DNA of 59,449 nt from a virus (Duplodnaviria; Caudoviricetes), in IMG/VR virus record IMGVR_UViG_3300034050_001176, positions 1 to 59,449 of that record. The stretch is one strand, 5' to 3'. Shown here piece after piece: positions 425 to 39,828 of this stretch. The translations under genes were made by a program, and so were the position numbers. How positions within the stretch are numbered: the first letter of the stretch is position 1; each line of letters starts with the position of its first letter. The notes under the pieces were generated by a model, which was not told the origin of the DNA, made no database searches, and saw nothing but the letters and a program-made list of their open reading frames with translations.

Positions 425-468
425 ATATACATAATTTATCAACAGTGTTATTAACAAGGTTATACACA
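425..468 (+). promoter_or_regulatory. Degenerate DnaA-box-like array upstream of terS (left copy)
   Basis: ATATACATA, TTATCAACA, TTATTAACA, TTATACACA, in the same positions as the four boxes at 39785-39828. Confidence 0.45.
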
Positions 469-469
469 C

Positions 470-853
470 ATGGAATTAACACCCCCTCGTTCAACGCCTG
501 CTTCAGATTATCTCGATTTTGTAAGACGCAAGGCTGTATCTGGCATGAGTTCTGACCAAATCGCTGCAGACTACGCTCAGCGCTGGAATATTTCCTATGA
601 GCTTGCCAAGCAACGTATGAAGGAATCTGAATACCGACAAGCCATGGAAGCTGGCTACCAATCTGGTCTGGGGCGGATTTGGGAAAAACTCCACCACCTT
701 GCTATGGAAAAAAATGATCAGGGGATTTTGTTATTACTGGCCAAGGAACAACTCAAACTGTTTGGTCAAGTGGAATCGGAGGATTTACTGGCTAAAAGTT
801 CGTTGAGTAAAGATAAACTCAAGAAAATTCATGAGCTGATCTTTGGAAAATAA
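470..853 (+). CDS. terS: Putative terminase small subunit
   Basis: 127-aa helical protein overlapping the terL start; near-identical paralogue at 39400-39783. Call is positional. Confidence 0.7.
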   Translation: MELTPPRSTPASDYLDFVRRKAVSGMSSDQIAADYAQRWNISYELAKQRMKESEYRQAMEAGYQSGLGRIWEKLHHLAMEKNDQGILLLLAKEQLKLFGQVESEDLLAKSSLSKDKLKKIHELIFGK

Positions 854-2252
854 CCTCACTTCAGCTGAGATTATGAAAGAGGCGTGGTATGCTCACCGGA
901 CCTTCGCCTATTATGAACCGCATTTAAAACAGAAGCAGTTTCATGCATTGGGTAAAACCGCTCGAGAACGTTTGTTTTTGGCGGGTAATCGTACCGGTAA
1001 GACCTATGGTGGGGCAATTGAAGTGTGTATGCACCTCAGTGGCGTCTATCCTGAGGATTGGTCGGGCTATCGCTTTGATAAACCTATTATGGCCTGGGCA
1101 ATTGGGGTGTCGAATGAAACAGTGCGTTCGACCCTACAACAGTATTACATTGGTGATCCTAAAGCTTCAAGCCCTGGAGCGTTAGCCCCAGCTATTATCT
1201 TGTCCACCACGATGCGACGTGGCTTAGCCGATGCGGTTGATACGGTTCGGGTACGCCATGTTAGTGGAGCTCAATCAATCTTGTGCTTTAAAAGCTATCA
1301 GCAAGGTCGTGAAGCTTTGCAAGGGGCAAGAGTCGATTTAATCCACTGTGATGAAGAACCACCCCATAGTTTGTATATGGAATTACTGATGCGCCTCATG
1401 AGTGTTGATGGGGTATCCGATCCAGGCATGATGATGATTACCGCAACCCCATTATTGGGGATGACCAATACGATCTTGCGCTTTACCAATGAAGATGATG
1501 CAAGGGAAGGCGAAGCCCTGAATGGGCGTGGGTTTGTGCAAGCGGGTTGGAATGATAACCCGTATTTGAGTGAACCAGAAAAAAAACAACTGCGCTCCGG
1601 TATGGCACCCCATGAGTTGGAAGCCAGGGAAAAGGGTATTCCATCACTTGGCTCTGGTATGGTCTATCCGGTCGCTGAATCAGCAATTACCTGTGAGCCA
1701 TTTGCTATTCCAGACTATTGGCCAAGGGTTTATGGCCTAGACTTTGGTTGGACAGCTCCAACCGCAGCACTTTTTGGGGCTCATGATCGGGACAATGATG
1801 TGATCTATTTCAACTGCGAATATGCTTTACCAGAGCTCACGCCCCAACAACATGCTACAAATCTTTTAAAACTTGGGGCGGATTGGATTCCAGGGGTTTT
1901 TGATCCCTCAGGGCTACAATCAAGTGTTAAGGATGGTGACAAGCTTGCCCAAGTTTACCATGATGTGGGACTCAAACATTTAAGCAAAGCCGATAATGCT
2001 AAAGAATCAGGCATTGCCCAAACTTTGACGCGGATGCAAAATGGGCAACTTAAAATTTTTAGCTCCTTATCACAAACTCTCAAGGAGTTACGCATCTATG
2101 GACGTGATGAACATGGCATTGTTCGCAAAGGCAATGACCATCTTATGGACTGTATGCGCTATATTGTGATGTCAGGGCTCAATGTTGCTCGGCCCCAGAA
2201 AATGCCAAGGCCCATTGGTAGAATGCGCTGTCAAGGTGGGGGATATTTATGA
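843..2252 (+). CDS. terL: Terminase large subunit, P22 gp2-like
   Basis: Walker A LAGNRTGKT, FKSYQQGRE, Walker B IHCDEEPP, TATP coupling motif, nuclease motifs GLDFG and NDHLMDCMRY; TTG start. Confidence 0.95.
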   Translation: MENNLTSAEIMKEAWYAHRTFAYYEPHLKQKQFHALGKTARERLFLAGNRTGKTYGGAIEVCMHLSGVYPEDWSGYRFDKPIMAWAIGVSNETVRSTLQQYYIGDPKASSPGALAPAIILSTTMRRGLADAVDTVRVRHVSGAQSILCFKSYQQGREALQGARVDLIHCDEEPPHSLYMELLMRLMSVDGVSDPGMMMITATPLLGMTNTILRFTNEDDAREGEALNGRGFVQAGWNDNPYLSEPEKKQLRSGMAPHELEAREKGIPSLGSGMVYPVAESAITCEPFAIPDYWPRVYGLDFGWTAPTAALFGAHDRDNDVIYFNCEYALPELTPQQHATNLLKLGADWIPGVFDPSGLQSSVKDGDKLAQVYHDVGLKHLSKADNAKESGIAQTLTRMQNGQLKIFSSLSQTLKELRIYGRDEHGIVRKGNDHLMDCMRYIVMSGLNVARPQKMPRPIGRMRCQGGGYL

Positions 2253-2277
2253 TTGATATGTGTGGAAAAGCAAACTC

Positions 2278-2378
2278 ATGACTACACAACTCCATAAACC
2301 GCCAAGAGGTTATGGATTCTCTTCCTTGATGGAGATAGCTGTGGCCAGCTCTCACTAACCTTTCTTAAATGCTTTTGT
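2278..2378 (+). pseudogene. Relic of the patatin N-terminus
   Basis: After a frameshift it reads TTP*TAKRLWILFLDGDSCGQLSLTFLKCFC, versus TTPQTAKTVRILSLDGGGMRGYLSATFLKRFC in 36699-37871. Confidence 0.8.
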
Positions 2379-37871: not shown

Positions 37872-38004
37872 GATTCAGCTTTTCTTCTTCAGTCACGGCA
37901 TCATCAACCACCTGGCGAACCTCTTCCTCCCAAAATAATTTAGGGATATCGCAACCGGTACAGCTAAAACCTATTGCAAGTAGCCAGAATATTCTAACGC
38001 TCAT
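37849..38004 (-). CDS. 51-aa putative lipoprotein (not in the ORF track)
   Basis: MSVRIFWLLAIGFSCTGC-DIPKLFWEEEVRQ..., a lipobox-like signal. ATGA-coupled to the terL stop and overlapping the patatin start. Confidence 0.55.
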   Translation of the reverse strand: MSVRIFWLLAIGFSCTGCDIPKLFWEEEVRQVVDDAVTEEEKLNHDHPTNR

Positions 38005-39410
38005 AAATACCCCCCACCTTGGGAGCGCATTCTACCAATGGGTCTTGGCATTTTTTGCGGCCGAGCAACGCCGAGTCCGGACATTACGACATAGCGCATA
38101 CAGTCCATGAGATGGTCATTGCCTTTGCGAACAATGCCATTTTCATCGCGTCCGTAGATGCGGAGTTCCTTGAGAGTTTGTGATAGGGAGCTAAAAATTT
38201 TAAGTTGCCCATTTTGCATCCGCGTCAAAGTTTGCGCAATCCCTGCTTCTTTAGCATTATCAGCTTTGGTTAAATGCACTAAGCCCACGTCATGGTAAAC
38301 CTGGGCGAGTTTATCGCCATCTTTGACACTTGATTGTAGCCCTGAAGGATCGAAAACGCCTGGAATCCAATCCGCTCCCAGTTTTAAAAGATTGGTGGCA
38401 TGTTGTTGAGGAGTGAGTTCCGGTAAAGCATATTCAGAGTAGAAATAGATAACATCATTATCCCGATCATGAGCCCCAAACAGTGCTGCGGTCGGAGCCG
38501 TCCAACCAAAGTCCAGACCATAAACCCGTGGCCAATAGTCTGGAATATTAAATGGATCACAAATAATTGCTGATTCAGCGACCGGATAGACCATACCAGA
38601 GCCAAGCGATGGAATACCTTTTTCTCGGGCTTCCAATTCATGGGGTGCCATGCCGGATCGCAGTTGTTTTTTTTCTGATTCGCTCAAATACGGGTTATCA
38701 TTCCAACCTGCTTGCACAAACCCACGCCCATTCAGTGCTTCGCCTTCCCTGGCATCATCTTCATTGGTAAAGCGTAAGATCGTATTGGTCATCCCCAATA
38801 ATGGGGTTGCCGTAATCATCATCATCCCAGGATCGGATACCCCATCAACACTCATCAGGCGCATCAGTAATTCCATATATAAACTATGGGGTGGTTCTTC
38901 ATCACAGTGGATTAAATCGACTCTTGCCCCTTGCAAAGCTTCACGGCCTTGCTGGTAGCTTTTAAAGCACAGAATTGATTGACCTCCACTAACATGGCGT
39001 ACCCGAACCGTATCAACCGCATCGGCTAAGCCGCGCCGCATCGTGGTGGACAAGATAATTGCTGGGGCTAACGCTCCAGGGCTTGAAGCTTTAGGATCAC
39101 CAATGTAATACTGCTGCAAGGTTGAGCGTACCGTTTCATTGGATACGCCAATCGCCCAGGCCATAATCGGTTTTTCAAAACGATAGCCTGACCAATCCTC
39201 AGGATAGACGCCACTAAGGTGCATACAGACTTCAATTGCTCCACCATAGGTTTTACCCGTACGATTACCCGCCAGAAACAAACGTTCCCGAGCCGTTTTA
39301 CCCAACTCATGAAACTGCTTTTGTTTTAAATGCGGTTCATAATACGCAAAGGTCCGGTGAGCATACCATGCCTCTTTCATAATCTCAGCTGAGCTCAGGT
39401 TATTTTCCAA
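38001..39410 (-). CDS. terL: Terminase large subunit
   Basis: Paralogue of 843-2252; TTG start assumed by analogy (an in-frame ATG lies at 39422). Confidence 0.95.
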   Translation of the reverse strand: MENNLSSAEIMKEAWYAHRTFAYYEPHLKQKQFHELGKTARERLFLAGNRTGKTYGGAIEVCMHLSGVYPEDWSGYRFEKPIMAWAIGVSNETVRSTLQQYYIGDPKASSPGALAPAIILSTTMRRGLADAVDTVRVRHVSGGQSILCFKSYQQGREALQGARVDLIHCDEEPPHSLYMELLMRLMSVDGVSDPGMMMITATPLLGMTNTILRFTNEDDAREGEALNGRGFVQAGWNDNPYLSESEKKQLRSGMAPHELEAREKGIPSLGSGMVYPVAESAIICDPFNIPDYWPRVYGLDFGWTAPTAALFGAHDRDNDVIYFYSEYALPELTPQQHATNLLKLGADWIPGVFDPSGLQSSVKDGDKLAQVYHDVGLVHLTKADNAKEAGIAQTLTRMQNGQLKIFSSLSQTLKELRIYGRDENGIVRKGNDHLMDCMRYVVMSGLGVARPQKMPRPIGRMRSQGGGYL

Positions 39411-39783
39411 AGACCAGCTCATGGATTTTCTTCAATTTATCTTTACTCAACGAGCTTTTAGTCAGCAAATCCTCCGATTCCACCTGACCAAACAGTTTGA
39501 GTTGCTCCTTAGCCAACAATAACAAAATCCCCTGATCATTTTTTTCCATGGCCAGATGGTGGAGTTTTTCCCAAATCCGCCCCAAACCAGATTGGTGGCC
39601 AGCTTCCATGGCTTGACGATATTCAGGTTCTTGCATGCGTTGTTTAGCAAGCTCATAGGTGATGTTCCAGCGTTGAGCATAGTCCGCAGCAATTTGGTCG
39701 GAGCTCATTCCAGACACAGCTTTGCGTCTTACAAAATCGAGATAATCTGAAGTGGGCGTTGAACTAAGGGGTGTCAATTCCAT
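39400..39783 (-). CDS. terS: Putative terminase small subunit
   Basis: Paralogue of 470-853. Confidence 0.7.
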   Translation of the reverse strand: MELTPLSSTPTSDYLDFVRRKAVSGMSSDQIAADYAQRWNITYELAKQRMQEPEYRQAMEAGHQSGLGRIWEKLHHLAMEKNDQGILLLLAKEQLKLFGQVESEDLLTKSSLSKDKLKKIHELVFGK

Positions 39784-39784
39784 A

Positions 39785-39828
39785 TGTGTATAACCTTGTG
39801 GATAAATATGTTGATAACCTGTGAATAA
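39785..39828 (-). promoter_or_regulatory. Four tandem DnaA boxes abutting the terS start
   Basis: TTATTCACA-gg-TTATCAACA-tat-TTATCCACA-agg-TTATACACA-t-ATG; three boxes match TTWTNCACA exactly. Confidence 0.7.

Follow-up and report, generated by a model that had tools for sequence, protein, structure and literature searches.

We analysed the virus record IMGVR_UViG_3300034050_001176 over its whole length, a single metagenomic virus contig of 59,449 nucleotides (nt) that is referred to here as the window. Two related sets of virion genes, copies A and B, lie in it as mirror images on either side of one attachment (att) site. At a probability of roughly 0.7, we read them as two related, separately acquired temperate phages standing head-to-head at one tRNA-Gln attB, that is, as a tandem double lysogeny. 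Of A, the window has the 17.7 kb next to the integrase; of B it has 41.6 kb or more, which is nearly the whole phage. On this reading the mirror pair is an ordinary double lysogeny in an unusual orientation and not a new kind of element.

The inverted repeat found by a repeat search pairs positions 370–17271 with 18149–39883 as 17 collinear segments, each 83–90% complementary, and blastn aligned copy A with copy B over 15,799 columns at 86.0% identity, far above chance. Fourteen gene pairs run from terS to the integrase (terS, terL, portal, g308/313, major capsid, g123, SU10-type adaptor, g719/717, fibre-like g411/423, g136/130, g343, g467/458, g647/610 and integrase), and every frame is open in both copies. 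An earlier sequence-only reading of this DNA had thirteen genes occurring twice in inverted order; the inverted duplication stands, and the number of pairs is 14. The similar proteins, many synonymous changes and intact frames that it described are confirmed, with amino acid (aa) identities of 69–96% and a synonymous divergence (dS) of 0.43–1.29 per gene, or 0.64 when pooled. The ratio of nonsynonymous to synonymous divergence (dN/dS), which it had proposed as a check, is 0.05–0.25 for individual genes and 0.118 pooled, not near 1. No conversion tracts between A and B were seen in the blastn alignment, where no exact match is longer than 98 nt and identity stays at or below 96.5% in every 200-column window.

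Pfam and PHROG matches place a T4-type terL, a P22-type portal, a capsid, an SU10-type adaptor, a fibre-like protein and a tyrosine integrase in each arm. The portal scores 250–252 bits with PF16510 (gathering cut-off 26.1) and the adaptor 46–50 bits with PF24175 (gathering cut-off 27), in A and B alike. Sequence searches of the PDB with the copy B capsid, g717 and g610 gave no match, nor did a megablast of copy B against GenBank phages. The virion module of A occupies 470–16355 on the plus strand, as defined by its open reading frames (ORFs), the Pfam and PHROG matches and the pairing with B. It comprises terS (470–853) and g308 (4569–5495), placed by their ORFs, and terL (843–2252), the P22-type portal (2726–4552), the major capsid (5688–6908) and the SU10-type adaptor (7432–8070), placed by Pfam/PHROG, all on the plus strand. 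The same module also holds g123, g719, fibre-like g411, g136, g343, g467 and g647; it has no patatin/fibre cassette. The corresponding module of B, from g610 through terS, lies at 19065–39783 on the minus strand and was defined in the same way. An extra 145-aa ORF of copy B (30530–30967) sits between the portal and g313, where A has only 16 nt. Positions 1–370, 5' of the terS of A, have no counterpart in B and no ORF of 80 aa or more, and they gave no match to the metagenome-assembled genomes (MAGs) G004 and G005. The record starts here, so the genes further to the left, which the earlier reading proposed to inspect, lie outside it.

Between the two modules, the integrase genes diverge from a spacer of 380 nt (17525–17904) that separates their starts. 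Integrase A (390 aa; 16352–17524, minus strand) and integrase B (387 aa; 17905–19068, plus strand) both match PF00589, PF13356 and PF14659 and are 79% identical in amino acid sequence, while integrase A and the integrase of the related locus L021 are 83% identical. The spacer contains one 3' fragment of tRNA-Gln(TTG) at 17692–17740 on the plus strand, which agrees with the earlier description of a single att site. This fragment of 49 nt starts with the 5' strand of the anticodon stem, includes the T arm and reaches to CCA, with the anticodon loop at about 17696–17702, and ends 164 nt before the gene for integrase B. It is 88% identical over 50 nt to the tRNA-Gln(TTG) called by ARAGORN in contig L026, and the exact 49-mer forms the 3' end of an intact tRNA-Gln in metagenome contigs and in nine loci of MAGs that bear the names Candidatus Finniella, Candidatus Odyssella or Alphaproteobacteria. 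No complete tRNA was found in the window by ARAGORN or by Rfam at its gathering threshold, Rfam giving no match at all. Judged from these features, 17692–17740 is the att core of both copies.

The arms on each side of the core are built alike. The integrase-proximal arm of A (17525–17691) contains two 7-nt arm-type motifs located by a motif scan, at 17534–17540 and 17545–17551 and thus 11 nt apart, as well as boxes common to relatives; the integrase-proximal arm of B (17741–17904) has its arm-type motifs at 17857–17863 and 17868–17874. Of the 14 occurrences of the motif, CTAAC[GT]T, in the window, five are in the centre. Measured from the anticodon loop, the pairs fall at −165/−154 on the A side and +158/+169 on the B side, and are mirror images. 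The far arms in contig L032, which joins two phage flanks (L2 and R2, described below) through the same core, have the motif at +65/+76 in R2 and at −81 in L2. The motif layout indicates that A and B have one attP architecture about the anticodon loop and differ in the side that bears the rest of the tRNA.

The mechanism we propose involves only known steps of integration. The attB of both phages would be the tRNA-Gln gene upstream of alaS, and their shared type of attP would have one motif pair about 155–170 nt from the anticodon loop on the integrase side and another about 65–80 nt from it on the far side. In A the 3' segment of the tRNA is on the far side, in B on the side of the integrase. 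With the core facing opposite ways relative to the two integrase genes, normal integration of both phages at one attB would leave the genomes head to head: ordinary, orientation-conserving recombination by the integrases would bring A and B into the chromosome in opposite directions, and entry of the second phage into the hybrid att site of the resident would give the order integrase–core–integrase, with mirrored virion modules. The boundary of the identity block and the symmetry of the motifs suggest that crossover takes place in the anticodon loop. We also infer the order of integration and the continuity of the array in one chromosome. A palindromic att site with antiparallel recombination was considered and dropped, since both core polarities are natural in relatives and all cores are in direct orientation. 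The 52 nt at 17640–17691 in the A part of the spacer were likewise examined as a decayed 3' half of tRNA-Gln in the orientation of B, and did not convince: the best local alignment spans 10 nt, and 69 of 2000 shuffles scored as high (358 of 2000 for the control orientation).

Both polarities are indeed present in this integrase family. We compared the regions upstream of the integrase gene in eight family members and found the tRNA segment parallel to the integrase in three, antiparallel in three and absent in two (L021 and L024). Intact tRNA genes lie about 145 nt upstream of the integrase in L022 (tRNA-Asp) and L025 (tRNA-Gly), and copy B is parallel in the same way. In L020, L023 and copy A, a 3' tRNA fragment is present upstream of the integrase in reverse complement. 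L020 in addition has an intact tRNA-Lys at the far end of the prophage, which gives direct repeats of 51 nt at a distance of 41,357 nt and hence the size of a complete prophage in this family. The core is thus antiparallel to the integrase in A and parallel to it in B.

The divergence of the paired genes speaks for separate ancestry. As a third taxon we used a prophage of genome G001, inserted at tRNA-Lys and with a capsid 96% identical, which supplied orthologues for 12 of the 14 genes and usable dS values for 10. For four of these 10, the G001 prophage is a nearer relative of A than B is: dS is 0.38 against 0.48 for the capsid, 0.19 against 1.00 for g123, 0.43 against 0.94 for the adaptor and 0.24 against 0.80 for g467. 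The remaining six have the smaller dS between A and B, the portal being near-equal (0.59 versus 0.62). Such a pattern is the mosaic typical of related phages, and argues that A and B are independent lineages and not the products of a local duplication. It follows that the low dN/dS records divergence as phage lineages before the two were joined. The earlier inference that both copies appear to be under purifying selection agrees with the low ratio, which does not, however, demonstrate selection on both at their present site.

We also looked at what adjoins the core elsewhere, in the seven metagenome contigs and nine MAG loci in which it is present exactly. The site is unoccupied, with tRNA-Gln followed directly by alaS, in seven of the nine MAG loci and in contigs L028 and L031, while L029 has the exact core at a different tRNA-Gln locus. 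The junction of the window recurs in L034, a 4596-nt contig of another assembly, which has A arm, core and B arm and is 100% identical to window positions 15692–19722 over 4031 nt. In L030, host tRNA-Gln is followed by 35 nt of the flank R2, as an attL of A would be. L032 and L033, from two assemblies, join L2 to R2 through the core in a far-end to far-end junction. R2 encodes a 244-aa protein, an HTH_17 Xis-like protein and a 131-aa protein, followed by a primase that at its start shares 90% nucleotide identity with the N-terminus of the primase of B; by its orientation, R2 looks like the early, far end of A. The first ORF of R2 has a mirror-oriented homologue in L2 (27% identity over 144 aa, E 2e-11), and L2 is probably the far end of either B or a phage similar to it. 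No relatives of the L2 ORF were present in the viral_contigs or genome_contigs collections, and the exact patterns A arm–core and core–B arm had no match in the viral_contigs collection.

The centre of the window was found in 24 lake or freshwater metagenome runs, nine of which contain at least 0.95 of its words and 15 of which contain 0.52–0.79, or about one integrase half. For four of these runs (X1, X2, X9 and X17) we followed the coverage of the centre in Logan k=31 contigs. Edges of these contigs lead to the 5' half of the tRNA before 17692 in X1 and X9, to R2 after 17740 in X2 and to the alaS flank after 17740 in X17. The depth over A is about 1.5–3 times that over B in X1, X2 and X9, contig depths being rough measures, and X17 has integrase B without integrase A, the uncovered parts in that run not being evidence of absence. 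Together these differences give only a hint that some cells hold one phage alone. At the tRNA-Gln/alaS site of two MAGs (L037 and L038, about 2050–3000) there is an insert of about 950 nt with an ORF resembling short-chain dehydrogenases; the insert of L038 ends in a degenerate second tRNA 3' end, as though left by an earlier integration. The site seems to be a hotspot.

The host can be judged from the right-hand end of the window. The last 126 nt (59324–59449, plus strand) are the left end of an insertion sequence (IS), with the boundary taken from an alignment; the final 65 nt are 100% identical to five places of G004, a MAG of Candidatus Finniella inopinata, four of which lie within about 90 nt of a contig end. 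The start of a short ORF in this stretch may resemble the N-terminus of an IS5-family transposase. The contig ends here because of the IS at 59324, and the match to a Candidatus Finniella MAG argues that the DNA had resided in a Finniella-like cell. We read the window as prophage DNA of a Finniella-like (Holosporales-type) alphaproteobacterium of lakes. The same IS appears to cut the primase of B at about codon 50, given the intact N-terminus in L032, and the 740-aa ORF listed as the primase of B runs on into the IS. Two further MAGs of Candidatus Finniella inopinata, G003 and G007, each contain at least five integrases of this family, and G003 has two copies of the capsid gene, on contigs that break off within it. 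Members of this host group seem often to be lysogenised by several related phages, at different tRNA genes (Asp, Gly, Arg).

The copies differ in gene content in the interval between portal and terL, where B has an extra 5.2 kb (32785–38000) and A only 479 nt. The cassette of B (33117–37871, minus strand; from ORFs and Pfam/PHROG) consists of a 503-aa ORF, a 252-aa fibre-like ORF, a 394-aa ORF and a patatin gene (36699–37871, minus strand; PF01734, E 8e-29). We surveyed 16 related loci with a portal match, one of which does not reach the region. Cassette genes lie upstream of the portal in 10 of the 16, and terL directly adjoins the portal in five (L001, L002, L010, L011 and L014), as in copy A. 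The cassette is by this comparison a variable module of the phage family, and its absence therefore does not mark copy A as defective. The sequence-only reading had one copy complete and the other without fibres and patatin; A does lack the cassette, but B is not complete either, its primase, beyond the stretch then considered, being cut by the IS. Two loci, L007 and L008, have their cassette (4163–6474) on the opposite strand. The presence of genes for a patatin-like phospholipase and a fibre-like protein between terL and portal puts a lipase within a podovirus-type virion module.

Several observations weigh against a double lysogeny. The right-hand junction that it predicts, phage–core–alaS, is absent from the seven metagenome and nine genome loci with the exact core, and in no contig among them is host tRNA-Gln followed by the arm of B; the window itself includes neither of the outer host junctions. 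The assignment of L2 to B and of R2 to A uses orientation, distant homology and a 62-nt match, and the window ends before the far end of B. Every line of support for the join derives from short-read assemblies, with no single molecule spanning host, A, B and host; L034 may be from the same or a sister sample, and so may not be independent. The Logan k=31 contigs end inside the 49-nt core with several edges, and are silent on the pairing of A arm with B arm. That two phages with 79%-identical integrases have the same target and opposite core polarities is itself a coincidence that needs explanation. A bolder reading has a flip of the core within the near-symmetric attP giving a stabilised head-to-head pair that may persist and move as a cointegrate, joined only integrase to integrase and far end to far end, with the IS-damaged B using the replication functions of A; we regard this as a long shot. 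If it were true, homologous recombination within the head-to-head pair would invert DNA rather than delete a genome, and would stabilise the pair.

The join itself might be an artefact, in which single lysogens at tRNA-Gln in different cells or strains had their integrase ends connected by assembly through the 49-nt core. The record consists of one metagenomic contig, and in each of the four runs the k=31 graph branches at the core as at a repeat; both the 1.5- to 3-fold difference in depth and the finding of integrase B alone in X17 would fit such a chimera. It nevertheless seems unlikely, as the same junction is present in a second, differently broken assembly (L034), and the reciprocal L2–core–R2 junction in two (L032 and L033). 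Furthermore, phages not in tandem would require the junctions A arm–core–alaS, L2–core–alaS and host tRNA–core–B arm, none of which is among the seven plus nine exact-core loci. Common metagenome assemblers have a final k above 50, which would span a repeat of 49 nt. A different matter is whether the joined genomes are chromosomal. Integrase-to-integrase and far-to-far junctions are expected from arrays in the orders A–B and B–A, and equally from a cointegrate that was co-excised or formed by attP x attP recombination. Such a circle, a head-to-head heterodimer of A and B of about 85 kb, would have as its only two junctions A arm–core–B arm and L2–core–R2, each of which was seen twice and both of which occur in the same sample series (L034 and L032), and it accords with the missing phage–core–alaS junction. 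We think it improbable that the circle is the source of the window. The join of host tRNA-Gln to R2 in L030 means that integration has taken place, be it of A or of the pair; a host IS has damaged the replication module of B; and about 85 kb would probably be too large for a capsid built for relatives of about 40–41 kb. Arrays in both orders explain the two junctions equally well.

An inverted duplication in situ, or one composite element with two virion modules, is very improbable. Its attractions are the 14 intact gene pairs with low dN/dS, the absence of the fibre/patatin cassette from copy A, and the IS-broken primase, by which B could in principle depend on A for replication. The dS of 0.64 speaks against duplication, as do the four genes for which a prophage of another genome is nearer to A than B is. 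The composite forms that had been put forward, a helper with a dependent partner, a domesticated copy resembling a gene transfer agent (GTA) and a single element making two particle types, are not supported either. Both copies have the full virion set, their own integrase and their own att arms, and the cassette that A lacks is also missing in five of 16 relatives and present in 10, which removes the case for a helper and a dependent. For a GTA-like copy, A has too much of a phage about it, with integrase, arm-type sites and att core, and its site is empty in related hosts (seven of nine MAG loci and two contigs). The integrase regions occur apart, B without A in X17, and at unequal depth, contrary to one composite element. 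We also rejected a satellite of the P4 or phage-inducible chromosomal island (PICI) kind, an element that is without most virion genes and depends on structural proteins of a helper, since all 13 virion-module genes are intact in A and paired with B.

The double lysogeny has parallels in known systems. In Mycobacterium abscessus, tandem prophages at one attB arise when an incoming attP recombines with either attL or attR from the prophage already in place, and prophiT36-2a and prophiT36-2b at attB-2 are two different, partly similar prophages that are separately excisable, according to the relevant passages of PMC9934374. A and B resemble this pair, as described there, in that each has a tyrosine integrase at one attB (PMC9934374). 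They differ in the host, an uncultured Finniella-like alphaproteobacterium, in the tRNA target and in being known from sequence alone. A and B are also head-to-head by virtue of opposite core polarity, whereas those passages of PMC9934374 do not state the orientation of the prophiT36 pair. In Escherichia coli, prophages of lambdoid phages are reported to integrate into or beside other prophages (PMC8112680); the window is similar in that related prophages pile up at one locus, with scope for prophage–prophage interaction.

The window and the G001 prophage also have the usual marks of phages and islands that target tRNA genes, namely a block of identity from the anticodon stem to CCA (49–51 nt), an integrase with an Arm-DNA-binding domain, and an intact tRNA at one end with a 3' fragment at the other. 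Such integrases are reportedly divided into sublocation classes (Williams in 2002), in which attP contains the 3' segment of the tRNA from the anticodon loop onward. What departs from these systems is that both polarities of the tRNA segment occur in one integrase family, and in A and B for the same tRNA. The GTA of Rhodobacter capsulatus (RcGTA) is a head–tail cluster of about 15–17 kb in an alphaproteobacterial genome. Agents of this type have neither integrase nor att, are inherited vertically at a fixed place in the chromosome, and fill undersized heads with random host DNA. Copy A is a cluster of that kind and size in such a genome, but unlike RcGTA it has an integrase, att arms and a core, a T4-type terL, a P22-type portal and an SU10-type adaptor; in addition its site is empty in related hosts, and other contigs show an early module as its continuation. 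In the literature on head-to-head prophages at one attB, judged by titles and abstract openings, no such case is apparent, and we make no claim that none is published. The parts of the Finniella literature consulted treat prophages only in passing.

Beyond its virion module, B has a cargo region at 39997–53968, with genes on both strands (from ORFs and Pfam), and an early/replication module at 54059–59323 on the minus strand. The GC content of the cargo region is 32–38%, against 44–47% in the virion genes. On the plus strand, 43647–53968, are a helix-turn-helix (HTH) protein, a DksA-like protein, a major facilitator superfamily (MFS) transporter, a CdiA-like protein of 2382 aa and a SUKH immunity-type protein. 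In Pfam the CdiA-like protein has only DUF637 matches; a two-partner-secretion domain was not found. Two ORFs of 586 and 140 aa on the minus strand (39997–42243) have N-termini resembling signal peptides and no Pfam or PHROG match, and from these N-termini may be secreted cargo of the phage of an endosymbiont. They are followed by 1.4 kb (42244–43646) in which no ORF reaches 60 aa. In the 41.4-kb G001 prophage, too, there are MFS and CdiA-like genes, in another position and orientation. The replication module of B encodes CarD-like and RuvC-like proteins, a Cas4-type exonuclease, a DUF669 protein, a Sak4-type AAA_24 protein and the primase (PriCT_2/DUF3987).

The striking mirror repeat of 2 x 17 kb is thus accounted for by ordinary integrase biology. 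What is modestly new is that, with a near-symmetric attP and the tRNA segment on either side of it, close relatives can enter the same tRNA gene in opposite directions. The analysis also brings to light a family of temperate phages, about 41 kb in size and with MFS and CdiA-like toxin/immunity cargo, in Finniella/Odyssella-like lake bacteria, which are relatives of known endosymbionts of protists. Between tandem prophages in head-to-head orientation, recombination would give inversion and not deletion, and this may affect the lifetime of polylysogens of related phages.

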